Shown: positions 5,764-30,817 of the stretch, in pieces
Position numbering within the stretch: position 1 is the first letter of the stretch
Layout: each line of letters starts with the position of its first letter
Source of the DNA: Escherichia phage EC120
Reading direction: 5' to 3' (one strand)
Sequence record: ON185580.1
Length of the DNA: 44,544 bases
Translations under genes and position numbers: made by a program
Notes under the pieces: model-generated
What the model was told of the DNA's origin: nothing
Seen by the model: only the letters and a program-made list of their open reading frames with translations
The model's database searches: none

Positions 5764-5779
5764 GTCTCACATGTGAGAC
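5764..5779. repeat. Palindrome GTCTCACATGTGAGAC (copy 1)
   Basis: Perfect 16-bp palindrome, 2 nt upstream of phage promoter 5782. Confidence 0.8.
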
Positions 5780-5781
5780 TT

Positions 5782-5804
5782 ATTTACCGGACACTATAGG
5801 ATAG
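5782..5804 (+). promoter_or_regulatory. Phage-RNAP promoter (ATTTACCGGACACTATAGGATAG)
   Basis: 18-bp SP6-type core; expected +1 G at 5799. Confidence 0.7.
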
Positions 5805-5947
5805 CCGTCGGAGACGGGGAAAGAAAGGGAAGATAAAGGATATAAAAAGGAAGTGATAGGTATTAAAGGCTATATAGGTTATCTAGGAATACCTATTACC
5901 TTCTTCCTTCCTCTTATTACTACTTAGAGGAAGGGCAGATCTAGGTT

Positions 5948-5963
5948 GTCTCACATGTGAGAC
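5948..5963. repeat. Palindrome GTCTCACATGTGAGAC (copy 2)
   Basis: Perfect 16-bp palindrome, 5 nt upstream of promoter 5969. Confidence 0.8.
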
Positions 5964-5968
5964 TTCGT

Positions 5969-5991
5969 ATTTACCGGACAGTATAGATAAG
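5969..5991 (+). promoter_or_regulatory. Phage-RNAP promoter variant (ATTTACCGGACAGTATAGATAAG)
   Basis: One substitution in the core (CAGTATAG); expected +1 G at 5986. Confidence 0.6.
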
Positions 5992-6016
5992 ACTAACTTA
6001 CTTTGGAGATTTAACC

Positions 6017-6145
6017 ATGCGTAACTTTGAGAAGATGACCCGTAAAGCTAACCGTTTTGACATGGAAGAAGGGCAGAAGAAAGGCAAGAAGCTGAATAAA
6101 CCTGTCCGTGACCGTGCATCTAAACGCGCTGCGTGGGAGTTCTAA
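6017..6145 (+). CDS. Small basic protein, T7 gp1.1-like (42 aa)
   Basis: MRNFEKMTRKANR...KLNKPVRDRASKRAAWEF resembles recalled T7 gp1.1 (MRNFEKMT...KLNK..RDR..KR); below track cutoff. Confidence 0.5.
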   Translation: MRNFEKMTRKANRFDMEEGQKKGKKLNKPVRDRASKRAAWEF

Positions 6146-6148
6146 GTT

Positions 6149-8137
6149 ATGGCTATTATTCAGAATGTACCGTGTCCTGCCTGTCAAAAGAATGGACATG
6201 ATATTACTGGCAACCATCTTATGATATTTGAGGATGGCGCTGGTTACTGTAACCGTGGTCACTTCCATGATAATGGGAAGCCTTATTACCATAAGCCAGA
6301 GGGTGGTATCGAGATAACCGAATTGCCTATTACTGGCAATATCAAATATACACCTTCTCAATTCAAAGAAATGGAGAAGGAAGGGAAGATAAGCGACCCT
6401 AAGCTACGCGCCATCGCTCTTGGTGGTATGCGTATGAAAGACCGTTGGGAGGTCATGAATGAGCAAGAAAGGGCAGACCAAGAAGCAGAGTGGAAACTTG
6501 ATGTTGAATGGTTCCTCACGCTTAAGCGTAAGAACCTTGTTTCCAGACACATTCGCGGCGACATTTGCGCATTGTATGATGTACGTGTCGGACACGATGA
6601 AGAGGGTAGAGTCTCGCGGCATTACTATCCACGCTTCGAGAAAGGTGAGCTAGTAGGAGCTAAGTGTCGCACATTACCTAAAGATTTTAAGTTTGGTCAT
6701 TTAGGTAAACTCTTTGGTATGCAAGATCTTTTCGGTATGAATACTTTGTCTCACGTGTTAGACAAGGGGAGACGAAAGGATTGCTTGCTTATTGTAGGCG
6801 GTGAACTTGATGCACTAGCAGCGCAGCAGATGCTCCTTGATTCTGCCAAAGGTACTAAGTGGGAAGGACAACCATATCATGTGTGGTCTGTCAACAAGGG
6901 CGAGTCTTGCCTTGAAGAGATAGTGCAGAACCGTGAGCATATCGCCCAATTCAAGAAGATTATATGGGGTTTTGATGGAGATGAGGTAGGGCAGAAGCAG
7001 AATCAGCAAGCGGCTCGCCTGTTTCCTGGCAAATCCTATATCCTTGAATACCCCTCTGGTTGCAAAGATGCTAACAAGGCATTGATGGCTGGCAAGGCCA
7101 AAGAGTTTGTTGATGCATGGTTTAATGCCAAGTCATCTGATGAAGTCTTTGGTAGCCAGATTAAATCTATCGCATCTCAAAGGGATAAGCTCAAGGCTGC
7201 ACGTCCAGAGCAAGGACTATCATGGCCTTGGCCTAAGCTGAACAAGGTAACGCTAGGTATTCGTAAGAACCAACTTATCATTGTAGGCGCAGGCTCTGGT
7301 GTAGGTAAGACTGAGTTCCTTCGTGAAGTAGTTAAGCACCTCATTGAAGAACACGGTGAATCTGTAGGCATCATTTCTACAGAAGACCCGATGGTCAAGG
7401 TGTCCCGTGCTTTTATCGGCAAGTGGATTGATAAGCGTATTGAGTTACCGCCAACCAACGACCCGAAAGAAGATGGATACCGTGAGGTGTTCGACTACAC
7501 CGAGGAAGAAGCCAATGCTGCCATTGATTATGTAGCGGATACAGGGAAGCTGTTTGTGGCTGACCTAGAGGGTGACTATTCGATGGAGAAGGTAGAGCAG
7601 ACTTGCCTTGAGTTTGAGGCTATGGGTATTTCTAATATCATCATTGATAACTTAACGGGGATTAAATTAGATGAGCGTGCTTTTGGTGGGAAGGTTGGTG
7701 CACTTGATGAATGCGTCAAGCGGATTGGTACTATCAAAGACCGACACCCGGTTACTATATTCCTTGTATCGCACCTTACACGTCCTCCGGCAAACCGTAC
7801 CCAACACGAAGAAGGTGGCGAGGTTATCCTTTCTGACTTCCGAGGCTCAGGAGCTATCGGATTCTGGGCATCTTACGCCTTGGGGATTGAGCGTAACACA
7901 AGAGCTGAAACGCTTGATGAAAGAACTACCACGTACATCTCATGTGTCAAAGACCGCGACCAAGGTATCTGGACTGGAACCAAGGTCATGCTTAAGGGTG
8001 ACATTCAAACCGGACGTTTAATGGAACCACAAGCCCGTACTAAGTCATTTGATACAGGTGAAGCAAGGCAACAAGAAGTACCAGATTTACCGGACACTAT
8101 AGAAGAGACTAACTTCGATGAAGAAAGTGAGTTCTGA
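6149..8137 (+). CDS. DNA primase/helicase (T7 gp4-like)
   Basis: N-terminal Cys4 zinc-binding motif (CPACQ...C..GHFHD), Walker A GAGSGVGKTEF, acidic C-terminus ending EESEF. Confidence 0.93.
   Translation: MAIIQNVPCPACQKNGHDITGNHLMIFEDGAGYCNRGHFHDNGKPYYHKPEGGIEITELPITGNIKYTPSQFKEMEKEGKISDPKLRAIALGGMRMKDRWEVMNEQERADQEAEWKLDVEWFLTLKRKNLVSRHIRGDICALYDVRVGHDEEGRVSRHYYPRFEKGELVGAKCRTLPKDFKFGHLGKLFGMQDLFGMNTLSHVLDKGRRKDCLLIVGGELDALAAQQMLLDSAKGTKWEGQPYHVWSVNKGESCLEEIVQNREHIAQFKKIIWGFDGDEVGQKQNQQAARLFPGKSYILEYPSGCKDANKALMAGKAKEFVDAWFNAKSSDEVFGSQIKSIASQRDKLKAARPEQGLSWPWPKLNKVTLGIRKNQLIIVGAGSGVGKTEFLREVVKHLIEEHGESVGIISTEDPMVKVSRAFIGKWIDKRIELPPTNDPKEDGYREVFDYTEEEANAAIDYVADTGKLFVADLEGDYSMEKVEQTCLEFEAMGISNIIIDNLTGIKLDERAFGGKVGALDECVKRIGTIKDRHPVTIFLVSHLTRPPANRTQHEEGGEVILSDFRGSGAIGFWASYALGIERNTRAETLDERTTTYISCVKDRDQGIWTGTKVMLKGDIQTGRLMEPQARTKSFDTGEARQQEVPDLPDTIEETNFDEESEF
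8085..8107 (+). promoter_or_regulatory. Phage-RNAP promoter embedded in 3' end of primase-helicase gene
   Basis: ATTTACCGGACACTATAGAAGAG; expected +1 G at 8102. Confidence 0.6.
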
Positions 8138-8157
8138 TTAGTGTATTTATCAGGGCT

Positions 8158-8175
8158 TGTCTCACATGTGAGACA
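8158..8175. repeat. Palindrome TGTCTCACATGTGAGACA (copy 3)
   Basis: Perfect 18-bp palindrome (extendable with wobble pairs to 8153-8180) right after the primase-helicase stop, followed by CTCTTATT. Confidence 0.8.
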
Positions 8176-8213
8176 GGCTCTTATTAAGTACATTAAATAA
8201 CTGGAGATTGATT

Positions 8214-8897
8214 ATGTATAAATTAGTATTGAATGTAGGTGATTATGTTCGTAACATCAATGAAGCCTCACGTCGTTATCGTTGCCGTGGTGTAGTGGCT
8301 CGTGTAAGTGAGAACATGTATCATGTAGAATATGAGGATGGTATTAAGGCTTCTTACCACAAGAAAACAGCACATAAATACCTTGAAAAGATTGTAGAGA
8401 TAAACAATCAATGTAAGTGCATACATGATGAGGTTTGCGATAAATGTGCTCGCCAGATGCTTAAGAATTTCCTAGCTCCTCTTTATTATGGTTCTGGCCC
8501 TCAAACACTAGCAGAGTACATGGCAGAAAAGAAAACCACACTCAAGAAAGAGCGCCGCAATGTAATCACTGGTAAGACTCAAAGTGAAATGATTAAACTA
8601 TGTGGCACTGCATTAGGTGTTACGCAGTTTAATACTCGTTCATTGGGTAAATCCACAGGGCAAGCTATGGTGAAGATTGGTGAAGCCATGATGCAACCAA
8701 ATGTACCTGTGCGAATCGTGGATATTGACCATGCAATCACAGAGCATGGTACACCACGCCGTGTAGCTAACAATCATTTTGCCGACACTATAGAAGACAT
8801 TATTCGTAAGCAAGGGTTGAAGGGTCTTCACATCTTAAATGGTGAAGAATTACTGTACCTACCTATCGTTACTGAAGAAACCTACGTGAATATCTAA
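8214..8897 (+). CDS. Hypothetical protein (227 aa)
   Basis: GGAG RBS then ATG 8214 (track start 8208 is TTG); no recognised motifs. Confidence 0.65.
   Translation: MYKLVLNVGDYVRNINEASRRYRCRGVVARVSENMYHVEYEDGIKASYHKKTAHKYLEKIVEINNQCKCIHDEVCDKCARQMLKNFLAPLYYGSGPQTLAEYMAEKKTTLKKERRNVITGKTQSEMIKLCGTALGVTQFNTRSLGKSTGQAMVKIGEAMMQPNVPVRIVDIDHAITEHGTPRRVANNHFADTIEDIIRKQGLKGLHILNGEELLYLPIVTEETYVNI
8776..8798 (+). promoter_or_regulatory. Weak or divergent phage promoter-like sequence (ATTTTGCCGACACTATAGAAGAC)
   Basis: Conserved GACACTATAGAAG with 4 mismatches in the upstream half; lies inside a CDS. Confidence 0.4.
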
Positions 8898-8907
8898 GGA
8901 GTTAATC

Positions 8908-9126
8908 ATGACTAAAGTATTAATTTATATGCGTGGACCTCATAAATGCTATGCAGTTGTAGCACCAAATGGTGTTAAGCCCTATAGTACTTCAAAAGGA
9001 TTGGCATTAATAGGTGCTAGTAGTAGTGCAAGTTTCCAAATGGAACTTTTTGGTCATTGGACTGAATGGCAATTCCGTGAGGATTTTAAAGTCATTGGCA
9101 GCTTCATGGTGAAACATGCAGAATAA
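8908..9126 (+). CDS. Hypothetical protein (72 aa)
   Basis: GGAG RBS then ATG. Confidence 0.55.
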   Translation: MTKVLIYMRGPHKCYAVVAPNGVKPYSTSKGLALIGASSSASFQMELFGHWTEWQFREDFKVIGSFMVKHAE

Positions 9127-9292
9127 ACATAGTCTTAAAATGTTCGATGGTCATGAAGACCTGCAAGCCAAGATTACTAACCAAGCCTTCCTGTTCGCAC
9201 AGTTAACTATGGCTGAAGCAAAGAAGAATAGCCTGACGCGTGAACAGGTTATCAAGGAAAGTGAAGTGAAACGTAAGATTCGCAGTCGATAA
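9116..9292 (+). CDS. Small hypothetical protein (58 aa)
   Basis: ATG overlapping the end of the previous ORF in another frame; basic C-terminus. Confidence 0.3.
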   Translation: MQNKHSLKMFDGHEDLQAKITNQAFLFAQLTMAEAKKNSLTREQVIKESEVKRKIRSR

Positions 9293-9302
9293 GTCAAGGG
9301 TT

Positions 9303-9318
9303 GTCTCACACGTGAGAC
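9303..9318. repeat. Palindrome variant GTCTCACACGTGAGAC (copy 4)
   Basis: 7-bp arms identical to the other copies with a 2-nt central mismatch; extendable to 9299-9322; followed by CTTTCATC. Confidence 0.75.
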
Positions 9319-9349
9319 AGCCTTTCATCATATTGATTGGAGGTGCATT

Positions 9350-9457
9350 ATGCCACGTGATTATGATTCTGATTGGGATTTCCAAGATTCAATGAATCCA
9401 AAACCAGAACGTTCAGATGATTACTACGAAACAGAGGCAATGTATGAAGACTATTAA
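9350..9457 (+). CDS. Small acidic protein (35 aa)
   Basis: GGAGGTG RBS then ATG 9350; MPRDYDSDWDFQDSMNPKPERSDDYYETEAMYEDY. Confidence 0.3.
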   Translation: MPRDYDSDWDFQDSMNPKPERSDDYYETEAMYEDY

Positions 9458-9662
9458 ATTAAGCAAGGTTTGCTCTTGCGGTAAAGGTTATCGCAGTCGT
9501 ATTGATGGTAAGTGTGGGCATTGCAGGTCTAAGAAAGAGGCTGCTTTGTTTGATAAGTACCACAATGAATTAGCATATAACTATCCTCATCTAACACCTA
9601 ATTCTTTATTAGGACTTGGTTATAGGGTTAAATACTTTGGAGCAATCTATGAAATCAATTGA
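9444..9662 (+). CDS. Small Cys-rich (zinc-ribbon-like) protein (72 aa)
   Basis: GAGG RBS then ATG 9444; CSCGKGY...KCGHC (two CxxC pairs); overlaps DNAP start by 14 nt. Confidence 0.5.
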   Translation: MKTIKLSKVCSCGKGYRSRIDGKCGHCRSKKEAALFDKYHNELAYNYPHLTPNSLLGLGYRVKYFGAIYEIN

Positions 9663-12195
9663 TTGGAAGAAGGAGGCAGAAGGTCGTATCCTCGTGATGG
9701 ATGCGGAAGCTAAAGGACTCCTTGACGCTATCCGATATGGACACCGTGAAGATGTGCATATCATTTGCTGCATGGACTTGCTTACTACCGAGGAGTTTCT
9801 CTTCTTTGACCCGTATGAGATGCGTGACCCTGAAGCAAGAGAACGCCTGAAGGAATGGGAAGGTCATCAAGATGGTGACTTGGTTGATGGTGTTAACTTC
9901 CTGAAGCACTGTGAGGCTATTGTGTCGCAGAACTTCCTAGGGTATGACGGACTCCTCTTTGAGAAAGCATTCCCTAATATCTGGAAAGGTTTTAACTATA
10001 CCGAGAAGCGCGGCAAGGGCAGGCTCCGCGCTGACCTGTGTCCTGTGCGAGTTATGGACACGCTGGTGATGAGCCGCCTGTTAAACCCCGATAGACGCCT
10101 CCCTCCGCAAGCATATGCCAAAGGTATGGGTAACGTCGCCCCTCACTCAATTGAGGCGCACGGCATCCGTATAGGCCGCTATAAACCGGAGAACGAGGAC
10201 TGGTCTAAACTAACTGACCACATGGTTCACCGTGTACGTGAGGACGTGGCGATTGGTCGTGACTTGTTCCTCTGGCTCTTTAACGGGGAATGGATGGAGC
10301 ACAAACGCCGTGGCGTGAATAAACGCACTGGCCTAGGTATTGAGACAGCCTTCCACATGGAGTCCATTGTGGCGCTGGAGATGAGCCGTCAGGCCGAGCG
10401 CGGGTTCCGTCTGGACATCGACAAGGCTTTGGCCCGATGCGAAGAATTGGACGCTAAGATTGATGAGACAGTCGCAGCGTTCCGCCCTCACATGCCTATG
10501 CGTATCAAGTCTAAACCTTTTAAACCGGAAGAAAAGAATGAAGTATGCCAACGCGCAAATGAGTATGGAGCTAGCAACAATATACCTACTGTCCTTGACC
10601 CCTCACACTTTCTTCATGCCGAGAGACGAGGAGATCGCAAGACAGTATGGAGTGTCACTACTAAGTCTGGTGATTGGTCGGCTAGTGTCAAGAAAGACTT
10701 TCCTCACCTTAGAGGAAACCGTAATGACACGCCAAGCATCAAGTGGATTGGCGCTTACTCGCCTGTTACTTTCGAAGAGATTCCCTTGGGTAACAGGGAT
10801 ACAGTTAAGCAAGTGCTCTATGAGTATGGATGGAAAGGTGTTGAATTTAACGATACCGAGCAAGCTCATCTCGATGAGCACGGAGTGTTACCCAAACCTT
10901 GGAGTGGTAAGATAAATGAAAAGTCCCTCACTTTATGGCAAGAAAGAGCCGCACGTGAAGGTAAAACAGTCCCTGATTGGTGCTTGGGTATCGCTGCATG
11001 GTACATACTCGTATCCCGTCGTGGTCAGATACTCAACCGTGGTGACGTTGAAGCCTTCAACGAGAAGGGAACGTGGCCCTCGCAGGCTGGTGTACGAAAG
11101 TGTCGCGGCCTTGTACCTGTAGCATTCAACAAGGAGCTAGGAATCAATGCGCAGCAATACTACGAGAGGTACGGATGTTGGCCTACGTCTGACAAAGATG
11201 ACGGAGAGTGGCGTGTTCCAGCTGTTGCTATTAGTATTGGCACTTCTACGTTCCGTATGCGTCATCGTAACGTGGTTAATATTCCTGCCCGTGGCTTGTA
11301 TCCTTTACGTGATTTATTCATAGCAGGGAAAGGCAAGCTAATCCTTGGTTGTGACGGTGCAGGTCTTGAACTGCGTGTCCTGTCTCACTTCATGAATGAC
11401 CCTGAGTACCAAGAGATTGTACTGCACGGTGATATTCATACGCATAACCAGATGAAGGCTGGTCTTCCTAAGCGTGATATGGCGAAGACGTTTATATACG
11501 CCTTCCTCTATGGTTCTGGTATAGCCAACCTTGCAGCAGTATGTGGTGTTACTGAGGAGGAAATGAAGGAAGTTGTGGCAAGATTCGAGATTGAACTGCC
11601 ATCTCTTGCACGTCTTCGTGAGAATGTTATCGCACAAGGTAACAAGTTTGGCTACCTGCAAGCACCTGATGGGCATTGGGGTCGCATCCGCATGTCTGGT
11701 GGTGAACTTAAAGAGCACACGATGCTTAACGTATTACTCCAGATGACTGGCTCTTTGTGTATGAAATATGCATTAGTAAAGGCATTTGCAGTAATGCGCA
11801 AGGAAGGTGTAGCCTTGGATGCTATGGGAAACCCTTGTGGTGTGGCTAACGTCCACGATGAAATCCAGATGGAAGTTCCTGAAGAAGAGGTCTTGTACCT
11901 TAACTATGACCTACCTTTCACCTTAGAAGGGTTTGAAACAGAGAAGGCTGCTGTGAAAGCAGTTTTCGATGCAGAAGAGAAACGTGTTCATGTGGATTCT
12001 GAAGGACGTATGTGGTCTGCTGCAAACCTCGTTAGTATTGATGCTGATGCTGGTGTACTTCATTGTCAGCGCCGTTATCACCGTGCTGGGCATATCATTG
12101 CCGACGCCATGACTTGGGCTGGTCAGTATCTGAAGATGCGTTGCCCGATGGCAGGAGAATATAAGATTGGCGCAAGCTGGAAGGAAACACACTGA
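9649..12195 (+). CDS. DNA polymerase (family A, T7 gp5-like)
   Basis: Exo I motif VMDAEAKGL, Pol A motif DGAGLELR, motif B KTFIYAFLYGSG, motif C VHDEIQ. ATG 9649 chosen (track start 9616). Confidence 0.95.
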   Translation: MKSIDWKKEAEGRILVMDAEAKGLLDAIRYGHREDVHIICCMDLLTTEEFLFFDPYEMRDPEARERLKEWEGHQDGDLVDGVNFLKHCEAIVSQNFLGYDGLLFEKAFPNIWKGFNYTEKRGKGRLRADLCPVRVMDTLVMSRLLNPDRRLPPQAYAKGMGNVAPHSIEAHGIRIGRYKPENEDWSKLTDHMVHRVREDVAIGRDLFLWLFNGEWMEHKRRGVNKRTGLGIETAFHMESIVALEMSRQAERGFRLDIDKALARCEELDAKIDETVAAFRPHMPMRIKSKPFKPEEKNEVCQRANEYGASNNIPTVLDPSHFLHAERRGDRKTVWSVTTKSGDWSASVKKDFPHLRGNRNDTPSIKWIGAYSPVTFEEIPLGNRDTVKQVLYEYGWKGVEFNDTEQAHLDEHGVLPKPWSGKINEKSLTLWQERAAREGKTVPDWCLGIAAWYILVSRRGQILNRGDVEAFNEKGTWPSQAGVRKCRGLVPVAFNKELGINAQQYYERYGCWPTSDKDDGEWRVPAVAISIGTSTFRMRHRNVVNIPARGLYPLRDLFIAGKGKLILGCDGAGLELRVLSHFMNDPEYQEIVLHGDIHTHNQMKAGLPKRDMAKTFIYAFLYGSGIANLAAVCGVTEEEMKEVVARFEIELPSLARLRENVIAQGNKFGYLQAPDGHWGRIRMSGGELKEHTMLNVLLQMTGSLCMKYALVKAFAVMRKEGVALDAMGNPCGVANVHDEIQMEVPEEEVLYLNYDLPFTLEGFETEKAAVKAVFDAEEKRVHVDSEGRMWSAANLVSIDADAGVLHCQRRYHRAGHIIADAMTWAGQYLKMRCPMAGEYKIGASWKETH

Positions 12196-12311
12196 TGGAT
12201 AGGCTTGACATTATTTGCCTATTCTTCACTCTCTTTCTTACACTCCTTATGCTTGCTTGTTATGGGAGTATGAGACTAGATATACCTGATGAAGAAGAGG
12301 GTTACGACTAA
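12195..12311 (+). CDS. Small hydrophobic protein (38 aa)
   Basis: ATG overlaps DNAP stop (TGATG); predicted TM LDIICLFFTLFLTLLMLACYG. Confidence 0.3.
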   Translation: MDRLDIICLFFTLFLTLLMLACYGSMRLDIPDEEEGYD

Positions 12312-12409
12312 TGCAAACTGCTTTTATTATTCTTGGTATCATATTATTTATGGTAGTACTCTGGGCCTTCTCTGGCATTGACCCGGATTGTGATGGTAAC
12401 TACGACTGA
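12311..12409 (+). CDS. Small hydrophobic protein (32 aa)
   Basis: TAATG overlap with the previous ORF; predicted TM FIILGIILFMVVLWAF. Confidence 0.3.
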   Translation: MQTAFIILGIILFMVVLWAFSGIDPDCDGNYD

Positions 12410-12476
12410 GTTATACTCAAGGTCACTTACGAGTGGCCTTTATGGATAACTTATCCCTACTTATTTTGTCTAACAT

Positions 12477-12499
12477 GATTTACTGGACACTATAGAAGG
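12477..12499 (+). promoter_or_regulatory. Phage-RNAP promoter (consensus copy)
   Basis: ATTTACTGGACACTATAGAAGGA; expected +1 G at 12494. Confidence 0.75.
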
Positions 12500-12564
12500 A
12501 AAGCCTAGACAATCTAGGTTTATAAGGTAGTATAGGTAATTAAGTAAATATAGGAGATATAAAC

Positions 12565-12942
12565 ATGTCTATGGTAACTACTCTGGTATTTGTAGCTCAA
12601 TACTTTCGTGGTCTGGCTAATAAGTTCAAGTCCAAGGCTATCAAAGCTATTGAGTCTCGCATCGAGGCAGTACAGGCAGAGCAGGTTAAAGTTGAAGAAC
12701 ATCGTAGTTCTCAAATGATTGACTGCCATAACCGCTACTATGCATCTCGTGATGACCTTAATGCACGCCAAGTCAAAGAGGTTGAAGAGATGCTGGCACG
12801 TCACCAGCAAGAGCGCGACAGTCTGAAAGCTGAATTTGAAGAGAACAAGGCATCCATCGCCCTTGTACATCAAGCCGCATCTGACAGCCTGAAGAAAGAG
12901 ATTGTTATGCTGGAAATTGAGTTAGACAACCTGACCAAATAA
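12565..12942 (+). CDS. Hypothetical coiled-coil protein (125 aa)
   Basis: AGGAGA RBS; heptad-rich charged sequence. Confidence 0.65.
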   Translation: MSMVTTLVFVAQYFRGLANKFKSKAIKAIESRIEAVQAEQVKVEEHRSSQMIDCHNRYYASRDDLNARQVKEVEEMLARHQQERDSLKAEFEENKASIALVHQAASDSLKKEIVMLEIELDNLTK

Positions 12943-13920: not shown

Positions 13921-14139
13921 ATGAAAGTACAAATCGTAACCCTGCACTGCAAGAAAGGTATCACAACGCTCGTAGGTAGCACTTTCCACTCTTTCTCCGA
14001 AGGGGAGATTTATGCTGACCTGCACTACATCTGGCGCGATGGACAGCACGTGGTGAACTACAGCGACCCAGCTACGGGGAAACGCCACGGCGTATCGCTT
14101 CCTGCGCATGACATTGCTCAGGTGAACACAGTTTTATAA
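13921..14139 (+). CDS. Hypothetical protein (72 aa)
   Basis: AAGGAGAAAGG RBS then ATG. Confidence 0.55.
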   Translation: MKVQIVTLHCKKGITTLVGSTFHSFSEGEIYADLHYIWRDGQHVVNYSDPATGKRHGVSLPAHDIAQVNTVL

Positions 14140-14140
14140 A

Positions 14141-14156
14141 GTCTCACATGTGAGAC
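14141..14156. repeat. Palindrome GTCTCACATGTGAGAC (copy 5)
   Basis: Perfect 16-bp palindrome starting 2 nt after the stop of ORF 13921-14139; 15 nt upstream of promoter 14172. Confidence 0.8.
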
Positions 14157-14171
14157 AAATCGGTGTCCGGT

Positions 14172-14194
14172 ATTTACTGGACACTATAGAAGAG
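14172..14194 (+). promoter_or_regulatory. Phage-RNAP promoter (consensus copy)
   Basis: ATTTACTGGACACTATAGAAGAG; expected +1 G at 14189. Confidence 0.75.
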
Positions 14195-14243: not shown

Positions 14244-14618
14244 ATGTTCAAGATTGAAACTATCGTAAACCGTGTTGTTAAAGGTGCTGCTCTGGTATCC
14301 GTTGAGTCTTTCATTATCGTCGATGAAGCTGATCAACTGGTAGCTGGTACTAAGGCTTATGATACTCGTGAAGAAGCTCAGGCTAAGATTGACAGCATGG
14401 GTAACTTCGCTGCGGGTCTGGAGTTCGCTCGTGCTTGCTTCCCTGAGCAGGCTGACAAAGCTCAGATTGGTAAGGCTAATATCGTAGCTGAATATCTGGA
14501 TTGGATTGCTGCTGGTAAGCCGGTGAAAGAAGTTAAAGCTGCGGAAGAAGTTGAAGCTCCGGCAGTAGAAGAAGTAGCTGCACCGGAAGTTCCGGTAAGC
14601 GAAGAAGAAGAGTTTTAA
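14244..14618 (+). CDS. Small acidic protein (124 aa) with C-terminal EEEEF tail
   Basis: Own promoter, strong RBS (AAAGGAGAA) and a terminator hairpin directly downstream; codon usage looks highly expressed. Confidence 0.7.
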   Translation: MFKIETIVNRVVKGAALVSVESFIIVDEADQLVAGTKAYDTREEAQAKIDSMGNFAAGLEFARACFPEQADKAQIGKANIVAEYLDWIAAGKPVKEVKAAEEVEAPAVEEVAAPEVPVSEEEEF

Positions 14619-16309: not shown

Positions 16310-17309
16310 GCTTCGCAGCTTGTACAAAGACTCCGAGGTACTTGATGCAATCGAGCAAGCTACCGACGAGAAAGGTAATGTTAATTACAATGAGATGGCA
16401 CGTGTATTATCGTGTCACCCTGTGGGTAAGAAGATTACCCGCCAGTTGGCTCGATACTGGCATGGTCAATTCAAGAAGACCAAGAAGAATGGTGATTATT
16501 ACCAGACCCTTCTGCAAGAAGATAAGCGTATCAAAGAAGAGCGTAAGCTCAGGACTCCTGACCGCTACGAGGATTTGGCTATTGTACCATTGCCTGACTC
16601 GCCTCATCGAAGTGTATTGGTAATCCCTGATACTCATGCACCTTATGAGCATCCAGATACCTTAGAGTTCCTTGCAGCAGTCGCGGCACGTTACCGTCCA
16701 GATACAGTGGTTCACTTAGGAGATGAGGCAGATAAACACGCCCTCTCCTTCCATGACTCTGACCCGAATCTGGATAGTGCTGGCATGGAGCTAGAGAAGG
16801 CTCGTGTCTTCATGCACAAGTTGCACAAGATGTTCCCTGTGATGCGCCTGTGTCATTCTAATCACGGCTCTATGCACTTCCGTAAGGCAAGCGCCAAGGG
16901 TATTCCAGTGCAATATCTTCGCACCTACCGTGAAGTCTTCTTCCCAAATGGAGGTGGCGACCAGTGGGATTGGCAGCATACACATGTTCTTGAGTTGCCG
17001 AATGGCGAACAGGTGGCATTCAAGCATCAACCTGCTGGCTCTGTCCTAGCAGATGCAGCGCATGAGCGTATGAACCTTGTGTGTGGTCACTTGCACGGTA
17101 AGATGTCTGTGGAGTACGCACGTAATACACATGAACAGTATTGGGCTGTGCAAGGTGGCTGCTTAATTGATGAGTCATCCCGTGCATTTGCCTATGGGCG
17201 TGAGTCTAAATACAAGCCAGCATTAGGTTGTGTGGTTATTCTGGAGGGTGTACCTCATATTGTCCCGATGCAAACCAATAGCGACAACCGTTGGATTGGC
17301 AAGATTTAG
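16302..17309 (+). CDS. Calcineurin-like metallophosphoesterase (335 aa from TTG; alternative ATG at 16393)
   Basis: Motifs IPDTHAPYEH (DxH), HLGDEADKH (GDxxD), CHSNHG (GNH-like), CGHLHG (GHxH). Strong AAGGAGG RBS 6 nt before TTG 16302. Confidence 0.75.
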   Translation: MGKLRSLYKDSEVLDAIEQATDEKGNVNYNEMARVLSCHPVGKKITRQLARYWHGQFKKTKKNGDYYQTLLQEDKRIKEERKLRTPDRYEDLAIVPLPDSPHRSVLVIPDTHAPYEHPDTLEFLAAVAARYRPDTVVHLGDEADKHALSFHDSDPNLDSAGMELEKARVFMHKLHKMFPVMRLCHSNHGSMHFRKASAKGIPVQYLRTYREVFFPNGGGDQWDWQHTHVLELPNGEQVAFKHQPAGSVLADAAHERMNLVCGHLHGKMSVEYARNTHEQYWAVQGGCLIDESSRAFAYGRESKYKPALGCVVILEGVPHIVPMQTNSDNRWIGKI

Positions 17310-19032: not shown

Positions 19033-19147
19033 TTTGAACGAAAAACAGCTTGAATTGTTAATAGAAGCCATTGAGCAATACTATTACATGTGGGGCTATC
19101 AGTCAGAAGAATTAGACTCCTTATATTCACAACTAAAAGGAGGTTAA
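19022..19147 (+). CDS. Small hypothetical protein (41 aa)
   Basis: ATG overlapping the ligase 3' end in another frame. Confidence 0.3.
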   Translation: MFIDLNEKQLELLIEAIEQYYYMWGYQSEELDSLYSQLKGG

Positions 19148-19149
19148 TT

Positions 19150-19347
19150 ATGTCTTTTGATTCTATGAAGGCAACTCGTGCTGTTGAGGTAGCAGAGGCC
19201 ATCTTCGAAACTCTATCCTGTGGCATGGAAGTGCCATATACTTTACTGGCTGATGCAGAAGAACTTGGTCTTTCTGTAGAAGCTATCCAAGAGAAGGTTG
19301 ACGAATTATATGGTACAGACGAAGAAGAAACCGACGATTTCATTTGA
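19150..19347 (+). CDS. Small acidic protein (65 aa)
   Basis: AAAGGAGG RBS then ATG 19150; C-terminus DEEETDDFI. Confidence 0.5.
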   Translation: MSFDSMKATRAVEVAEAIFETLSCGMEVPYTLLADAEELGLSVEAIQEKVDELYGTDEEETDDFI

Positions 19348-23917: not shown

Positions 23918-23925
23918 TACCTATG

Positions 23926-23960
23926 CCCTATCTACCTTGCGTAGGTAGGGTTCTTTTTTT
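23926..23960 (+). terminator. Intrinsic terminator after major capsid gene
   Basis: Stem CCCTATCTACC/GGTAGGTAGGG (one G-U pair), loop TTGC, then TTCTTTTTTTG; positional analogue of T7 T-phi. Confidence 0.7.
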
Positions 23961-23973
23961 GTTAGGAGGATTC

Positions 23974-24711: not shown

Positions 24712-27113
24712 TGGAAGTACAAGGTTCATTAGGTAGACAAATCCAAGGGATTAGCCAGCAGCCGCCAGCGGTACGCTTGGATGGTCAGTGCACAGCTATG
24801 GTTAATATGATACCTGATGTAGTGAATGGTACTCAATCACGCATGGGTACAACTCATATTGCAAAGATACTTGATGCGGGGACTGATGACATGGCTACTC
24901 ATCATTATCGCAGAGGTGATGGTGATGAAGAGTATTTCTTCACGTTGAAGAAAGGACAAGTTCCTGAGATATTTGATAAGTATGGGCGCAAATGTAATGT
25001 GACTTCACAAGATGCACCTATGACCTACCTCTCTGAGGTTGTTAATCCAAGGGAAGATGTACAATTCATGACGATAGCTGATGTTACTTTCATGCTTAAT
25101 CGTAGGAAAGTAGTTAAAGCTAGTAACAGGAAGTCACCTAAAGTTGGAAACAAAGCCATTGTGTTTTGTGCGTATGGTCAATATGGTACATCTTATTCCA
25201 TTGTAATTAATGGGACCAACGCTGCTAGTTTTAAAACACCGGATGGTGGAAGTGCAGACCATGTTGAACAAATTCGAACTGAACGTATCGCTTCTGAATT
25301 GTACTCTAAGTTGCAGCAATGGAGCGGTGTGAGTGACTATGAAATACAAAGAGACGGTACTAGTATATTTATCGAGAGACGGGATGGTGCTAGCTTTACA
25401 ATAACAACCACCGATGGTGCAAAAGGTAAGGACTTAGTGGCTATCAAGAATAAAGTTAGCTCTACTGACCTACTCCCTTCTCGTGCGCCTGCTGGTTATA
25501 AAGTACAAGTGTGGCCTACTGGCAGCAAACCTGAGTCTCGTTACTGGCTGCAAGCTGAGCCTAAAGAGGGAAACCTTGTGTCTTGGAAAGAAACAATAGC
25601 TGCTGATGTATTACTTGGGTTTGATAAAGGCACAATGCCTTACATTATTGAACGTACAGATATCATCAACGGCATAGCTCAATTCAAGATAAGACAAGGT
25701 GATTGGGAAGATCGTAAAGTAGGGGATGACTTGACTAACCCTATGCCCTCTTTTATTGATGAGGAGGTACCCCAGACAATAGGTGGAATGTTCATGGTGC
25801 AGAACCGCCTATGCTTTACAGCAGGTGAAGCGGTTATTGCTTCTCGTACATCATACTTCTTCGATTTCTTTCGTTATACGGTTATCTCTGCATTGGCAAC
25901 TGACCCATTTGATATTTTCTCAGATGCTAGTGAAGTCTACCAGCTAAAACATGCAGTGACCTTAGATGGCGCTACCGTGTTGTTCTCTGATAAGTCACAA
26001 TTCATACTGCCAGGCGATAAGCCTTTAGAGAAGTCAAATGCACTGCTTAAGCCTGTTACAACATTTGAAGTGAACAATAAAGTGAAGCCAGTAGTAACTG
26101 GTGAATCGGTAATGTTTGCCACTAATGATGGTTCTTACTCTGGTGTACGAGAGTTCTATACAGACTCTTATAGTGACACTAAGAAGGCACAAGCAATCAC
26201 AAGTCATGTGAATAAACTCATCGAAGGTAACATTACCAACATGGCAGCAAGCACCAATGTCAACAGGTTACTTGTCACTACCGATAAGTATCGTAACATA
26301 ATCTACTGCTACGATTGGTTATGGCAAGGAACAGACCGTGTACAATCGGCATGGCATGTATGGAAGTGGCCTATAGGTACAAAGGTGCGAGGTATGTTTT
26401 ATTCTGGTGAATTACTTTACCTGCTCCTTGAGCGAGGAGATGGCGTATATCTGGAGAAGATGGATATGGGTGATGCACTAACCTACGGTTTGAATGACCG
26501 CATCAGAATGGATAGGCAAGCAGAGTTAGTCTTCAAGCATTTTAAAGCAGAAGATGAATGGGTGTCTGAACCTCTTCCTTGGACCCCTACTAACCCAGAG
26601 CTTTTGGATTGCATCTTAATAGAAGGATGGGATTCATATATTGGTGGTTCTTTCCTATTCAAATACAACCCCGGTGATAACACCTTGTCTACAACCTTTG
26701 ATATGCATGATGATAGCCACGTAAAAGCGAAGGTTATTGTTGGTCAGATTTACCCTCAAGAGTTTGAACCAACACCTGTAGTTATCAGAGATAGGCAAGA
26801 CCGTGTATCCTATATTGATGTACCTGTTGTGGGATTAGTTCACCTTAATCTTGATATGTATCCTGATTTCTCCGTGGAGGTTAAGAATGTGAAGAGTGGT
26901 AAAGTACGCAGGGTGCTAGCGTCAAACCGTATAGGTGGTGCTCTCAACAATACAGTAGGTTATGTTGAACCAAGAGAGGGTGTCTTCAGATTCCCACTGA
27001 GGGCTAAGAGTACGGATGCTGTTTATCGTATTATTGTAGAATCACCTCACACATTCCAGCTCCGCGATATTGAGTGGGAAGGGAGCTACAATCCAACCAA
27101 AAGGAGGGTCTAA
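24711..27113 (+). CDS. Tail tubular protein B (gp12-like)
   Basis: N-terminal GISQQPP motif as in T7 gp12 (GGISQQP); 800 aa; ATG 24711 overlaps the upstream stop. Confidence 0.85.
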   Translation: MEVQGSLGRQIQGISQQPPAVRLDGQCTAMVNMIPDVVNGTQSRMGTTHIAKILDAGTDDMATHHYRRGDGDEEYFFTLKKGQVPEIFDKYGRKCNVTSQDAPMTYLSEVVNPREDVQFMTIADVTFMLNRRKVVKASNRKSPKVGNKAIVFCAYGQYGTSYSIVINGTNAASFKTPDGGSADHVEQIRTERIASELYSKLQQWSGVSDYEIQRDGTSIFIERRDGASFTITTTDGAKGKDLVAIKNKVSSTDLLPSRAPAGYKVQVWPTGSKPESRYWLQAEPKEGNLVSWKETIAADVLLGFDKGTMPYIIERTDIINGIAQFKIRQGDWEDRKVGDDLTNPMPSFIDEEVPQTIGGMFMVQNRLCFTAGEAVIASRTSYFFDFFRYTVISALATDPFDIFSDASEVYQLKHAVTLDGATVLFSDKSQFILPGDKPLEKSNALLKPVTTFEVNNKVKPVVTGESVMFATNDGSYSGVREFYTDSYSDTKKAQAITSHVNKLIEGNITNMAASTNVNRLLVTTDKYRNIIYCYDWLWQGTDRVQSAWHVWKWPIGTKVRGMFYSGELLYLLLERGDGVYLEKMDMGDALTYGLNDRIRMDRQAELVFKHFKAEDEWVSEPLPWTPTNPELLDCILIEGWDSYIGGSFLFKYNPGDNTLSTTFDMHDDSHVKAKVIVGQIYPQEFEPTPVVIRDRQDRVSYIDVPVVGLVHLNLDMYPDFSVEVKNVKSGKVRRVLASNRIGGALNNTVGYVEPREGVFRFPLRAKSTDAVYRIIVESPHTFQLRDIEWEGSYNPTKRRV

Positions 27114-27835
27114 TGGCTATAGGTTCTGCCGTTATGGCTGGTATGTCTTCTATTGGTAGTATGTTTACAGGCAGCGGTGCAGCAGCCGCTGCTGGAGGTG
27201 CTGCCGCAGGTGGCGGAGGCTTGCTAGGTTCTCTAGGTGGCTTCCTAAGCGGCTCTACTGCTGGCTTCTCTAATGCTGGGCTTCTTGGTGCTGGCCTTCA
27301 AGGTTTAGGCTTGATTGGTGATCTCTTTGGTGGAAGTGATGAAGCCAAGGCAATGAAGAAAGCACAAGAAGAACAGTGGCGGCAGCAACTTATTGCTACA
27401 CAAGAAGCATACAAAACAGTAGCAGATGCAGAGCGTTCTGCTGCTAAACAATATCATGCAGATGCAATAAGCAATCAGGCTTCACTACTACAGCAGCGAG
27501 CACAGGTTGCATTACTAGCAGGTGCTACTGGTACTGGTGGTAACTCTGTATCTTCTATGCTGAATGACTTAGCAGCAGAGGGCGGGAGGAACCAGAGTAC
27601 AATTATTGATAACTATGAGAATCAGAAGATTAACTTCACCAATCAGCTTAAGTCTATCCAGCGAGGTGGACAGATGCAGATGCGTGAGTTTAAGAAGCCT
27701 TCTGCCGTGAGCACCTTGGTGCAAGGTATACCGAGTCTGGCATCTGCCTATGTAACAGGTAGTAAGTCCGGCATGGCTTTAGGTAAAGCTTTAACTGATT
27801 CTCGTACATATTCATCTGGAACAAGAGGTATTTAA
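27113..27835 (+). CDS. Internal virion protein (Gly/Ala-rich N-terminus)
   Basis: AGGAGGG RBS; ATG overlaps the upstream stop; low-complexity G/A/S N-terminal region. Confidence 0.6.
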   Translation: MAIGSAVMAGMSSIGSMFTGSGAAAAAGGAAAGGGGLLGSLGGFLSGSTAGFSNAGLLGAGLQGLGLIGDLFGGSDEAKAMKKAQEEQWRQQLIATQEAYKTVADAERSAAKQYHADAISNQASLLQQRAQVALLAGATGTGGNSVSSMLNDLAAEGGRNQSTIIDNYENQKINFTNQLKSIQRGGQMQMREFKKPSAVSTLVQGIPSLASAYVTGSKSGMALGKALTDSRTYSSGTRGI

Positions 27836-30783
27836 TGGCAATTGAGCGACAAGCAGTACAAGGTCTGCCACAAGTGCAGGCCACTTCTCCTAATGTCATG
27901 ACCTTTGCACCTCAGCGAGTTGGAGGTGTGGAGGTTGGCGTAGCTTCTACCTCCGGTAGTCGATTTATCGAAGACCTTATTCGAGCAGCCAGTAGTGTAG
28001 CTGATGTAACCACTGGTATCCTTAATCAAAAGATTGAGGAAGATAAGGTTGTTCAAATGGAACGGGCATATAACGGATTAATGCCTTCTGAGGATGCAAC
28101 TCGTGGTGGCGCTCGTGCTAACATGCTTGTCAAAGCTCAACTGCTAGCTAATGATGAAGCAGCACGAATGAAAGACATGGCTACTCGTTTCCAAGGAACG
28201 GATGACGAGTGGACACAACTTATGGTTGACTCTCGTAATGAGATGCAGAATAAGCTGTTCCAGCAATACCCTGAGTTGCAAGGTGACAAAGATACTATGC
28301 GTATGGTCACTAATGTCTTCCAAGAACAGCAGCCTCAGATTTGGGCGACACGAACCCAGCATAAACTTGACCGTGAACAAGCAGACCGTGAGGATACCTT
28401 TGACGGGCGAGTGGCTTCTACTTGGGATTCTAATATTGACCCTGAAGCATCTGGTTATGCTTTACAGGAACGAATCCGCGAAGGTCTTACTCAAGGATTA
28501 CTACCTGAACAGATGCACAAGAAGTTAGTCCAGCGAGCAATTTCACTTGCACAAGGCGGTGATGTTAGCATGGCTGAAGCCCTGAAGTATGTGAAGGACG
28601 ATAAGGGTGTTTCTGTTTATGCTAAGAATCCACAGCTTATCACAGCCATCACTAGTGGTAATGCAGTTTGGGCTAGGAATAATGTAGCTGATGTAACTCG
28701 TATGTCTTTCGAAGTTAAAGAATCCTACCTTGCAGGTGATTTAACTGATGAAGAATTGTTGGAACGAGCACAGCACATTAATAATCTGACAGGTAACTCT
28801 GTCTTCTCTAATCCAGAGCTAGAGGCACTGATGCGCCAACGGGCTAAGCAGAATGCAGAGCTAGGTGCAATGCAGGATATGCGACGTGAGCTTTACTCCG
28901 ACCGCCTGACTGGCTTCCAAGGTAAGACTGATAAAGAGAAGAAGGCTTACATTGATGTTATCAAACAGGATAGCCAACTTTATGCAGACCAGCAAATCAA
29001 ACAACGTGGCTTGGACCCTTACAGTCAAGAGGCTGAAGCTATTCGTGGTGCAGTGGAAGTGCAGCGCCTGCAATTCATGAACTCCAAAGGCTTAGTGGAT
29101 GATACCTTTGAGTCTCGTATCAAAGCCATGGAATCTATGCTATCGCCTGAGCACTTTGCCAAGGGCGAACCACAGGAGTTGATGACTATTCGCCAGTTGT
29201 GGGAACAGTTGCCAGAAGAGAGCCGAGGTGTCTTTGGTGACACGGTGAATGGCTACATGGATAACTACAACACTGCACTACAAATGGGAGAGACACCTTT
29301 GCAGGCTGCAAGGTTTGCGCGTGAAGCACAGCAGAAATTCTCTCGTACTGAGAAGGAAACCAAGAAGTTCAACTCAGCTATTGGAGATGCACTGGATGAG
29401 GTATCTGGTGCTGGCTGGTTTGATGGTAAAACCGAAGTGTCAGACTTAGGTAAAGCTATTGCGGAAGAAGAGTTACGAGCTAAGGCCAATATGTTGTGGT
29501 CTAGTGGTATGCGTAACATGGATTCTATCAAGAAGGCTTTAATTACTTGGGGCAATAAACGCTACACTCAAACAGAGGATGCAAAGACTTCCGGTGGCTA
29601 TTTCATTAAAGGTGATTACACTTCTGCCTCTGATATGCTTATGTCAGTTGGGAAAGGCGTAAATCCTACCGATGTACCTCTGGCGCTTGGTAGGTATGTA
29701 GAAACACAGATGCCAGAATTGAAGAAGGAGCTTCAAGAGTGGGAAACTAAAGATGATATATACATTGATTACAATGAACAGAAAGGTACTTTCGTGATTC
29801 GTGCTGGTGCAGCAGGTCGCCCTCTTTCTGGAGTAATCCCTGTAACCTCTTTAGATACCACTTCACTACTAGATTCTGCCTATCAGAAGAAAGTAGAGGA
29901 ACGAGATAAAGGCGAGTATGTTCACCCTTATCGTACAGATATTGGTGCACAAGAGCCTATGCCAGCTAAACCAACTGCCAAAGATATTGGTAAATTTGGA
30001 CTAGCTAACTTCCTCATGTCTTCTGCTTTTGCTTCTGGTGAGAATCTGCCTTCTAACTTCGAGATTAACTATCGAGGTAATATGCAACAATTCTATGACA
30101 AGCTAGCTATGGATGAGAATAAAGATAAAGTTGGCTTTAATAAGGCAACTGGAACCTTTACTCCATATAAAGATGCTCACGGTGAGTCTATCGGTTACGG
30201 TCATTTCTTAACGGAAGAAGAGAAGCGAAACGGGTATATTAAGATTGGTGATGAACTAGTTCCCTATCGAGGGTCTATGTCTCAGCTTACAGAGAGCAAG
30301 GCTCGCGCTCTTATGGAGCAAGATGCCAAGAAGCATGTGCCTCCTACTCGTGACTGGAAGATTCCGTTTGACCAGATGCATCCTGCACAGCAACGTGGCT
30401 TGATGGATTTAACCTACAATTTAGGTAAAGGTGGAATCCAGAACTCACCGCGTGCTCTTGCTGCATTCAAAGCTGGTAAGCTTACGGAAGGCTTTATCGA
30501 AATGCTGGGCACTGCATCAAGTGAAGGTAAGCGTATCCCTGGTCTACTGAAGCGACGCGCTGAGGCATACAATATGGCATCTGCTGGTGGTGTGCCTAAG
30601 ATTACCGAAGTGGAGACTCGTGAAGATGGCTCCATGTGGGTTAGGTTTGGTGGACCTATGCCAGCAGGTTCTGTCTCGGCATGGACTCATAAACGTATTG
30701 GCGCGGATGGTTGGTATCAGGTTTATGAGGCTGCACCTACCAAGTTAGCTAAAGGTTCTAAGGTAGGTAAATTTAAGTTGTAG
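27835..30783 (+). CDS. Internal virion protein with C-terminal lysozyme-like domain
   Basis: 981 aa; segment TFTPYKDAHGESIGYGHFLTEEEK resembles the T4/P22 lysozyme core (YKDTEGYYTIGIGH). Confidence 0.75.
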   Translation: MAIERQAVQGLPQVQATSPNVMTFAPQRVGGVEVGVASTSGSRFIEDLIRAASSVADVTTGILNQKIEEDKVVQMERAYNGLMPSEDATRGGARANMLVKAQLLANDEAARMKDMATRFQGTDDEWTQLMVDSRNEMQNKLFQQYPELQGDKDTMRMVTNVFQEQQPQIWATRTQHKLDREQADREDTFDGRVASTWDSNIDPEASGYALQERIREGLTQGLLPEQMHKKLVQRAISLAQGGDVSMAEALKYVKDDKGVSVYAKNPQLITAITSGNAVWARNNVADVTRMSFEVKESYLAGDLTDEELLERAQHINNLTGNSVFSNPELEALMRQRAKQNAELGAMQDMRRELYSDRLTGFQGKTDKEKKAYIDVIKQDSQLYADQQIKQRGLDPYSQEAEAIRGAVEVQRLQFMNSKGLVDDTFESRIKAMESMLSPEHFAKGEPQELMTIRQLWEQLPEESRGVFGDTVNGYMDNYNTALQMGETPLQAARFAREAQQKFSRTEKETKKFNSAIGDALDEVSGAGWFDGKTEVSDLGKAIAEEELRAKANMLWSSGMRNMDSIKKALITWGNKRYTQTEDAKTSGGYFIKGDYTSASDMLMSVGKGVNPTDVPLALGRYVETQMPELKKELQEWETKDDIYIDYNEQKGTFVIRAGAAGRPLSGVIPVTSLDTTSLLDSAYQKKVEERDKGEYVHPYRTDIGAQEPMPAKPTAKDIGKFGLANFLMSSAFASGENLPSNFEINYRGNMQQFYDKLAMDENKDKVGFNKATGTFTPYKDAHGESIGYGHFLTEEEKRNGYIKIGDELVPYRGSMSQLTESKARALMEQDAKKHVPPTRDWKIPFDQMHPAQQRGLMDLTYNLGKGGIQNSPRALAAFKAGKLTEGFIEMLGTASSEGKRIPGLLKRRAEAYNMASAGGVPKITEVETREDGSMWVRFGGPMPAGSVSAWTHKRIGADGWYQVYEAAPTKLAKGSKVGKFKL

Positions 30784-30799
30784 TATCTAACTCAAGGCT

Positions 30800-30817
30800 T
30801 GTCTCACATGTGAGACA
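30800..30817. repeat. Palindrome TGTCTCACATGTGAGACA (copy 6)
   Basis: Perfect 18-bp palindrome between two internal virion protein genes, followed by GGTCTTTATG. Confidence 0.8.

Follow-up and report, generated by a model that had tools for sequence, protein, structure and literature searches.

The DNA analyzed here, referred to below as the window, is a stretch of 44,544 nucleotides from Escherichia phage EC120 (ON185580.1). It covers nearly the whole genome of a K1E/K1-5-like Vectrevirus (Molineuxvirinae, Autographiviridae; SP6 group) that is about 97% identical to Escherichia phage EEc4. An 18-bp palindrome is dispersed over this genome and has a two-layer anatomy: its core follows DNA-type symmetry rules and co-varies with one residue of the phage protein gp6, and at three sites it forms the apex of a longer RNA hairpin homologous to R1.1, an RNase III site of phage T7. 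With up to three mismatches allowed, TGTCTCACATGTGAGACA was found in 8 copies against 0.04 expected, a number reached in 0 of 100 shuffles. The six copies listed in a preliminary description of the window are all present, as 18-mers starting at 5763, 5947, 8158, 9302, 14140, and 30800, but the total is eight; the positions 5764, 5948, 9303, and 14141 given there are the starts of 16-bp cores, one base inside the 18-mers. The sequence reported as a half-site at 332–342 is there, but belongs to a full degenerate copy at the left end. Since the eighth copy lies in frame within the primase/helicase open reading frame (ORF) 6149–8137, the family is not purely intergenic, as had been supposed. The central AC variant at 9302 was confirmed, together with the three copies ahead of phage promoters (5763–5780 before 5782, 5947–5964 before 5969, and 14140–14157 before 14172) and the several copies directly after stop codons, of which there are four (ORF ends 8137, 9292, 14139, and 30783). 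The features are listed in Table 1.

Table 1. Palindrome copies, associated RNA hairpins, and the gene of the proposed binding protein in the window (dG, folding free energy; z, z-score; SD, Shine-Dalgarno sequence)
Feature	Position	Strand	Description
Left-end copy	325–342	.	AGTCTAACATGTGAGACA; hybrid half-sites CTAAC/CTCAC
Bare copy P1	5763–5780	.	TGTCTCACATGTGAGACT; 3' of early terminator (5698–5721)
Bare copy P2	5947–5964	.	covers −39 to −22 of second phage promoter (5969–5988)
In-gene copy	6747–6764	.	TGTCTCACGTGTTAGACA; primase/helicase frame TTG TCT CAC GTG TTA GAC A = LSHVLD
Class A1 two-part RNA hairpin	8139–8195	+	core 8158–8175 at apex; from primase/helicase stop to SD of gene 10; dG −28.7, z −7.8
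Class A2 two-part RNA hairpin	9283–9339	+	core 9302–9319, central AC; from stop of ORF 9116–9292 to SD of next small gene; dG −25.4, z −5.5
Fourth T7-type RNase III-like hairpin	12407–12452	+	T7 R1.1-like apex GGTCACTTACGAGTGGCC, no palindrome
Isolated half-site	12467–12477	.	TGTCTAACATG; abuts phage promoter 12478–12497
Bare copy	14140–14157	.	AGTCTCACATGTGAGACA; starts one base past stop of ORF 13921–14139
Class A3 two-part RNA hairpin	30781–30837	+	core 30800–30817; between internal-virion-protein genes 35 and 36; dG −21.6, z −4.2
gp6 gene, proposed trans-factor	2067–2999	+	probable true start ATG 2076; annotated 'hypothetical'

At the first two phage promoters and at the gene-18 promoter, a copy adjoins the upstream edge of the promoter, its core ending between −15 and −32. 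P1 occupies positions −36 to −19 relative to the first phage promoter (5782–5801), and the copy at 14140–14157 lies 14 nt upstream of the promoter at 14172–14191. P2 is the positional counterpart of T7 R1.1, which itself lies between phi1.1A and phi1.1B. The first strong early promoter of sigma-70 type (376–404) has its −35 hexamer 33 nt downstream of the end of the left-end copy, and in all genera the corresponding copy is found 11–45 nt upstream of the first strong sigma-70 promoter. Immediately to the left of the left-end copy of the window, at about 265–300, a heptamer-like repeat run (AACCTAGCC AACCTAGCC TATCCTAGC) recalls the short repeats adjoining the T7 terminal repeat. The isolated half-site at 12467 is possibly a decayed or half operator. 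Just upstream of the gene-18 promoter, at 14158–14190, an inverted copy of the specificity region of the promoter itself was observed (GTGTCCGG..CTGGACAC). It is also present in SP6 (about 14272–14300), PP1 (about 16858–16890), phD2B (about 14515–14545), and the relatives L019 and L042, and it co-varies with the promoter (CCGCCC/GGGCGG in PP1, GCCCC/GGGGC in phD2B, GTGCAGCAC/GTGTTGCAC in L019). The read-through RNA of 14158–14190 folds into a strong hairpin; together with the palindrome hairpin, dG is −22.2 and z is −3.0.

The element was found at homologous positions across Molineuxvirinae, as well as in Gajwadongvirus and Colwellvirinae. Absence from close relatives had been named as the outcome that would speak against a specific function; the motif occurs throughout the SP6 group. 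The suggestion that conservation exceeds that of ordinary terminator stems was also borne out: the flanks diverge, but each SP6-type genus examined has the same element at the homologous sites. K1E and K1-5 carry the same copies in the same places as the window. The SP6 form of the palindrome is TGTCTAAC-RY-GTTGGACA, and Klebsiella, Lelliottia, and Pectobacterium members and many uncultured contigs have TGTCCAAC-RY-GTTGGACA at homologous positions. These positions are the left end, the region after the RNA polymerase (RNAP) gene, sites within and after the primase/helicase gene, the region before the DNA polymerase gene, and the junction between the internal-virion genes 35 and 36; some clades have extra copies at the right end and within the RNAP, gp23, and ligase genes. 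The distant Erwinia phage phiEa1H has the Vectrevirus form, and its left-end homologue, like that of Proteus phage PM116, abuts a phage promoter. PM116 was considered as a palindrome-free control, which proved wrong: it keeps the family, mostly with one extra central base (at about 6455, 9815, 10905, and 31970), and has the 2-nt form only at the left-end copy (386). The 3-nt center was also found in Vibrio phage AS51 and Pseudomonas phage Alpheus and, judging from the sequences, implies a change in the spacing that a dimer would accept.

According to the IMG/VR scan, single-copy matches outside SP6-like contigs occur at approximately the chance rate. The GenBank records of K1E, K1-5, and both SP6 genomes have no annotated feature at the palindrome sites, and an Rfam scan of the window (E ≤ 1) gave one sub-threshold, unrelated match only. 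A full-text literature search, covering sources other than Scholl et al. (2004, JMB) and Dobbins et al. (2004, J Bacteriol), where the palindrome may have been remarked on, returned nothing on the palindrome, SP6/K1-5 RNase III sites, DUF3102, a gp6 link, or T7 R1.1 homology.

The half-site rules were derived from 124 distinct sites. The consensus is 5'-(T/A)GTC-Y-M-AC-R, and the half-sites are almost solely CCAAC, CTAAC, and CTCAC, that is, Y5 and M6 with no G6. The center is purine-pyrimidine (R-Y) in 65 of 65 copies, even when NN was allowed in the search, and the spacing is constant within Molineuxvirinae, PM116 excepted. The tolerated variation follows chemical class and is two-fold symmetric (Y5, M6, R9), as would be expected if a dimer reads the major groove, and not of an RNA stem. 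An RNA stem is further disfavored for the core because A-U to C-G double transversions would be rare there and G-C intermediates would be expected. Read on the sense strand, the asymmetries outside the hairpins number 14 G.U, 11 A.C, and 10 other mismatches, with no strand bias, and one homologous site shows asymmetry in either orientation (TGTCTAAC..GTTGGACA in Kp7 against TGTCCAAC..GTTAGACA in L044, L057, and L014). A model in which the core acts as RNA only was rejected on these strand-unbiased asymmetries.

The copy within the primase/helicase gene bears on the same question. Its codons TCC AAC GTG TTG GAC are identical in ULIP33, PP1, and Kp7, and the neighboring synonymous sites vary. 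At this point the helicases of PM116 and ECBP5 read MTAFLD and QQAVLD, with neither the site nor the SNV residues, so the enzyme can do without SNV. In Vectrevirus, the in-gene copy followed the sequence switch of the family at three of the four positions, including an Asn-to-His codon; the fourth change would make an in-frame TGA stop. The in-gene copy is under nucleotide-level selection. Among the functions proposed in the preliminary description, a binding site for a dimeric protein is thus the best-supported option for the 18-bp core at all copies, given the symmetric degeneracy, the unbiased strands, the frozen codons, and the co-variation with gp6 described below.

The AlphaFold model of gp6, for which 44 sequences were aligned, shows a confidently predicted helical domain at the N-terminus (aa 10–125) with a helix-turn-helix (HTH) at a pLDDT (predicted local distance difference test) of 92–96. 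A helix at 49–60 and a turn are followed by the predicted recognition helix 64–77, which bears residue 69 (K69 in the window). After the N-domain come a disordered linker, a 43-residue helix (208–250), and a small C-terminal domain with J-domain-like similarity at the structural level only. The top four Foldseek matches were all DNA complexes of VirB, ParB, or KorB. Sequence searches with gp6 against Pfam and PDB assigned no family and gave no ParB/KorB match; its homologue P0137 reached 23.7 bits with DUF3102 (PF11300), below the 24.4 cutoff (E 6e-5), and the window protein had no match to it. The gp6 N-domain was detected in 211 phage records, a count equal to that of SP6-type RNAP records and with a near-identical genus breakdown, and in no T7-group record of the genus summary or of 40 sampled rows. 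The matching gene is a 'hypothetical protein' in nearly all annotated records listed. In phage ECBP5, an operator at 1372–1387 lies within the coding sequence of its gp6 homologue (695–1729), hinting at autoregulation.

All conserved proteins were screened for alignment columns common to the window, K1-5, and phiEa1H and differing in CCAAC-type genomes. The screen led to a column in gp6 within the HTH-like segment FGIKKAQCY(K/N/H)LM; no second candidate with a fold suggestive of DNA binding emerged from it, nor any comparable recognition-helix column. The small conserved ORFs near the copies (9116–9292, 13921–14139, and 19090–19347) were rejected as binders, having neither domain matches nor co-varying columns. 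At every locus readable for both, K69 accompanies CTCAC and N69 accompanies CCAAC or CTAAC, including the locus L101, whose flanks are Vectrevirus-like. Cytosine at position 6 was counted in 69 of 98 half-sites at 8 K69 loci against 0 of 204 at 17 N/H69 loci.

In a blind test, eight homologues were picked from the protein sequence alone and their contigs were then inspected; seven of the eight predictions held. The N69 contigs L128, L134, and L135 have 6/6 CCAAC, 5/5 CCAAC, and 4/4 CTAAC, respectively. The K69 contig L129 has 6/6 CTCAC, L131 has CTCAC, and L133 has mostly CTCAC, and L130, with R69, shows a new form, GTCTACC-GT-GGTAGAC. The eighth, Salmonella phage SE29 (L132, K69), is a mosaic of CTCAC and CCAAC. 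ECBP5 (helix KKAWAYRLMKV, R69) contains no copy of the window motif and has a family of its own, GTCTAGT-RY-ACTAGAC, with about seven copies that are also promoter-adjacent; a second palindrome, TACTAGTTRGCTAGTA, was noticed there at 6062–6077 and 14591–14606, between the GTCTAGT operator and the phage promoter. In the Colwellvirinae phages AS51 and Alpheus, which have a K-type helix, GTCTCAC-RNY-GTGAGAC occurs 5 and 7 times, respectively, within the first 14 kb. On a gp6 tree of 20 taxa, residue 69 changes at least nine times, and the motif follows the residue at every tip. Sites as distant as 30.8 kb in the window and 21–35 kb in phiEa1H follow it as well. The Lys-G and Asn-A pairings are classical recognition chemistry. 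From these data, gp6 dimers are likely to bind the operator, with residue 69 reading base pair 6/13.

The operator could instead be read by some other sequence-specific protein, encoded by the host or by the phage, and the co-variation with gp6 would then reflect linkage or coincidence. The tie between gp6 and DNA was drawn from sequence, the cognate sites of the SE29 mosaic are those nearest gp6, and the small conserved proteins of ORFs 9116–9292 and 13921–14139 adjoin copies. Against a host factor, however, the E. coli phages L128 and L134 use a motif type unlike that of the window, and to our knowledge none of the consensus sites of CRP, LexA, TyrR, DeoR, SlmA, MatP, and PurR fits the palindrome. 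Another phage protein is opposed by the lack of a second DNA-binding-like candidate in the screen. The adherence of distant sites to the gp6 residue, its repeated changes on the tree, and the fit of the Lys/G and Asn/A pairings to usual recognition chemistry count against both, and we regard a different binder as unlikely.

The second layer is confined to three copies, whose transcripts form the hairpins A1–A3. Each comprises 23 bp, with an asymmetric internal loop separating an upper stem of 13 bp from a lower one of 9–11 bp, and runs from the upstream stop codon to 0–7 nt before the next Shine-Dalgarno sequence. Free energies range from −22 to −29 kcal/mol and z-scores from −4 to −8. In the family alignments across genera, compensatory changes occur in the stem extensions, with double changes in 5–8 pairs, and about three conserved G.U pairs per hairpin would give A.C on the opposite strand. 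In the 9302 family, the paired fraction of cells is 98.2%, compared with 28–44% when the partners are slid, and the observed covariation was reached in 0 of 500 shuffles. The flanks ACTCAAGG...GCCTTTATGA match T7 R1.1, and those of A3 (ACTCAAGG / GGTCTTTATGA) are homologous to it. The T7 layout is AACTCAAGGTC-[apex]-GCCTTTATGATTG; Kp7 has AACTCAAGGTC-T[palindrome]GG-GCCTTTATGATTG, and the counterpart in the window is ACTCAAGGCT-[palindrome]-GGTCTTTATGATAGG. The Class A elements thus agree almost exactly with R1.1 in their flanks. Because the flanks match this proven RNase III site, A1–A3 are taken as T7-type processing signals.

T7 R1.1 is reported to be cut by RNase III after nt 5887 (CCUUUAU^GAUUG; Dunn & Studier 1983). 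By analogy, host RNase III probably cleaves the three hairpins in the same way, with predicted cuts after about 8184 (A1), about 9328 (A2), and 30826 (A3, CUUUAU^GAUAGG). The fourth hairpin of this type, at 12407–12452, has a counterpart in SP6 at 12221–12262 (about 12233); as it lacks the palindrome, hairpin and palindrome are separable modules. A perfect-consensus phage promoter was also noted at 8085–8104, within the 3' end of the primase/helicase gene, with its start about 36 nt upstream of A1; the order of promoter and then RNase III site is the same as at several T7 sites. The bare copies (325, 5763, 5947, 6747, and 14140) form stems of 6–7 bp with dG of about −8 to −11 and z from −0.7 to +1.2, except that the 6747 copy has z = −2.1 due to unrelated flanking pairing. 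An RNA-processing hairpin, as proposed in the preliminary description, is therefore strongly supported for the three copies within long R1.1-homologous hairpins and not for the other five.

It is improbable that every copy is solely a transcript hairpin module on which RNase III or another RNA factor acts in processing or 3'-end stabilization, the preferences of this factor accounting for the conserved sequence. The covarying hairpins A1–A3 agree with it, every copy lies on the sense side of the transcribed strand, and T7 is reported to pair RNase III sites with promoters (Dunn & Studier 1983). However, the stems of the bare copies are too short for RNase III and their z-scores are not significant, and stem-breaking mismatches (C:A, A:G, and C:U) are as frequent as G.U outside the hairpins. 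The R-Y center and the Y/M degeneracies are two-fold symmetric, the copies at the left and right genome ends lie outside known transcription units, palindrome-free RNase III hairpins exist, and a host enzyme cannot account for a motif-type switch that tracks a phage protein residue. A phage-RNAP pause or termination hairpin, or an intrinsic terminator for host RNAP, is highly improbable: a consensus scan flags 5764–5779 and 5948–5963 only, where the adjacent promoter starts T-rich, and the annotators of PM116 labeled the homologue of A1 a rho-independent terminator, but there is no U-tract at 8158, 9302, 14140, 30800, or 6747, copies lie within the essential primase/helicase gene of the window and the RNAP and ligase genes of relatives, where termination would be harmful, and a terminator needs neither two-fold symmetric rules nor co-variation with gp6.

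Overall, the observations are probably explained by an operator bound by a gp6 dimer, three copies of which double as the apex of an RNase III hairpin. The 18-bp palindrome would be a duplex-DNA operator on which a gp6 dimer with a KorB/ParB-like HTH docks, Lys at residue 69 pairing with C:G and Asn with A:T at base pair 6/13. Of about eight dispersed operators, one would stand ahead of the first early promoter of host type, three directly before phage promoters, one in frame within the primase/helicase gene, and three at intergenic junctions. At these junctions the transcribed palindrome would serve as the apical stem-loop of a T7-type RNase III hairpin parting the upstream cistron from the next ribosome-binding site. 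In a compact genome, the places able to hold such a palindrome at no cost would presumably be limited to hairpin apices, positions ahead of promoters, and coding sequences that permit it.

Several points weigh against this explanation. The fold similarity of gp6 is moderate, and the ParB/Srx N-terminal CTPase domain was not found in it by Pfam, the model showing a long helix followed directly by the HTH. A6 half-sites still occur in K69 genomes (29 of 98), and the mosaic genomes K1-5, L094, and SE29 carry both motif forms; either K69 tolerates A:T or some sites in mosaic genomes are non-cognate. A strict model of one specificity per genome is weakened by the mosaics (K1-5 at A2, L094 at A1, and SE29). 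The location of the SE29 cognate sites nearest the gp6 gene also fits linkage within a recombination block. In the three hairpin copies, selection at the RNA level falls on overlapping nucleotides, and the core itself may have an RNA role. A fixed-geometry activator is disfavored because the operator-to-promoter spacing varies over the range of core ends given above.

With regard to function, KorB-like control or insulation of promoters, timing the early-to-middle switch, is put forward tentatively because of where the copies sit. The left-end copy could provide autoregulation or shut-off of the early operon encoding gp6. Roadblocking, an origin function, and DNA organization are alternative roles; the region after the RNAP gene is syntenic with the T7 primary origin. 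A more far-reaching and rather doubtful scenario is that, in SP6-type phages but not in T7, gp6 on about eight operators forms a KorB-like global circuit that times or insulates transcription from promoters of the host and the phage type, and perhaps also the use of an origin beside the RNAP gene, that the 18 nt are deliberately shared so as to couple the DNA occupancy of gp6 with mRNA processing at the three junctions, and that the natural K/N/R69 variants constitute an orthogonal set. Such coupling might arise if a gp6 roadblock set the transcript cut sites, or if gp6 also bound the RNA hairpin.

The closest parallel is KorB and its operator OB in plasmid RK2, a short perfect palindrome present in about 8–12 copies per replicon. 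The OB sites of RK2 are found directly ahead of promoters, farther away from them, and within genes. KorB acts as a dimer, as is proposed for gp6. In contrast to KorB, gp6 is without a detectable ParB CTPase domain and its C-terminus consists of the coiled coil and the J-like domain; the replicon here is a lytic T7-supergroup phage with a single-subunit RNAP, and three operators double as RNase III hairpin tips. The resemblance of gp6 to the ParB-parS, SopB-sopC, and VirB systems is at the fold level, and the half-sites of Vectrevirus, TGTCTCAC, and of the parS consensus, TGTTNCAC, resemble each other. Unlike parS, which has no central base pairs, the operator has a center of 2 bp (or 3 bp); gp6 has no ParA partner or CTPase domain, and partition is of no obvious need to a lytic phage.

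Compared with the T7 RNase III sites (R1.1, R1.3, and others), the Class A hairpins are similar in having a two-part stem with an internal loop and in lying near phage promoters, after one stop codon and before the ribosome-binding site that follows. They differ in that the invariant palindrome takes the place of the apical 18 nt and in an upper stem extended by about 3 bp; moreover, 5 of the 8 window copies lack extended stems and cannot be RNase III substrates, and A1–A3 are predicted sites, no demonstrated cleavage having been found for any SP6-type phage. The co-evolution of RNAP and promoters in T7, T3, SP6, and K1E is likewise a case of a multi-copy cis element switching with one or few residues of a phage-encoded reader. 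Here, in contrast, the reader is not the RNAP, and promoter type and palindrome type vary independently: L128 combines K1E-type promoters with CCAAC operators, and L129 combines phD2B-type promoters with CTCAC.

Three observations concern the arrangement of modules. In SE29 the A1 hairpin is doubled (9163 and 10163), the copies standing 1 kb apart around an extra DnaB_C-like ORF. The A2 copy of K1-5 (9569) belongs to the CCAAC type and is found where the downstream gene changes, and hairpins or operators may mark recombination junctions between modules. In the products of genes 35 and 36 (27835–34156 of the window), 34 and 36 alignment columns, respectively, are common exclusively to phiEa1H relative to six other genera, far above any other protein (0–6), which suggests that the internal-virion module has a separate evolutionary history or a mosaic origin.

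In the textbook regulation of T7-supergroup phages there are no classical operator-repressor circuits, and control is attributed to RNAP, its promoters, lysozyme, and inhibitors of host RNAP. If the explanation is true, an early DNA-binding protein with genome-wide operators would be a missing regulatory layer across the SP6 branch (211 sequenced phages), which includes therapeutic phages against K1 and the phage from which SP6 RNAP derives, and the universally 'hypothetical' core gene gp6 would acquire a function. The natural switches (Lys/C:G, Asn/A:T, and Arg with other half-sites) could supply orthogonal protein-operator pairs beside the SP6/K1E RNAP promoters. The three R1.1 homologues would extend RNase III-dependent mRNA processing, as predicted, to the SP6 group, and A1–A3 would be a clear example of a DNA-level and an RNA-level signal residing in one sequence.

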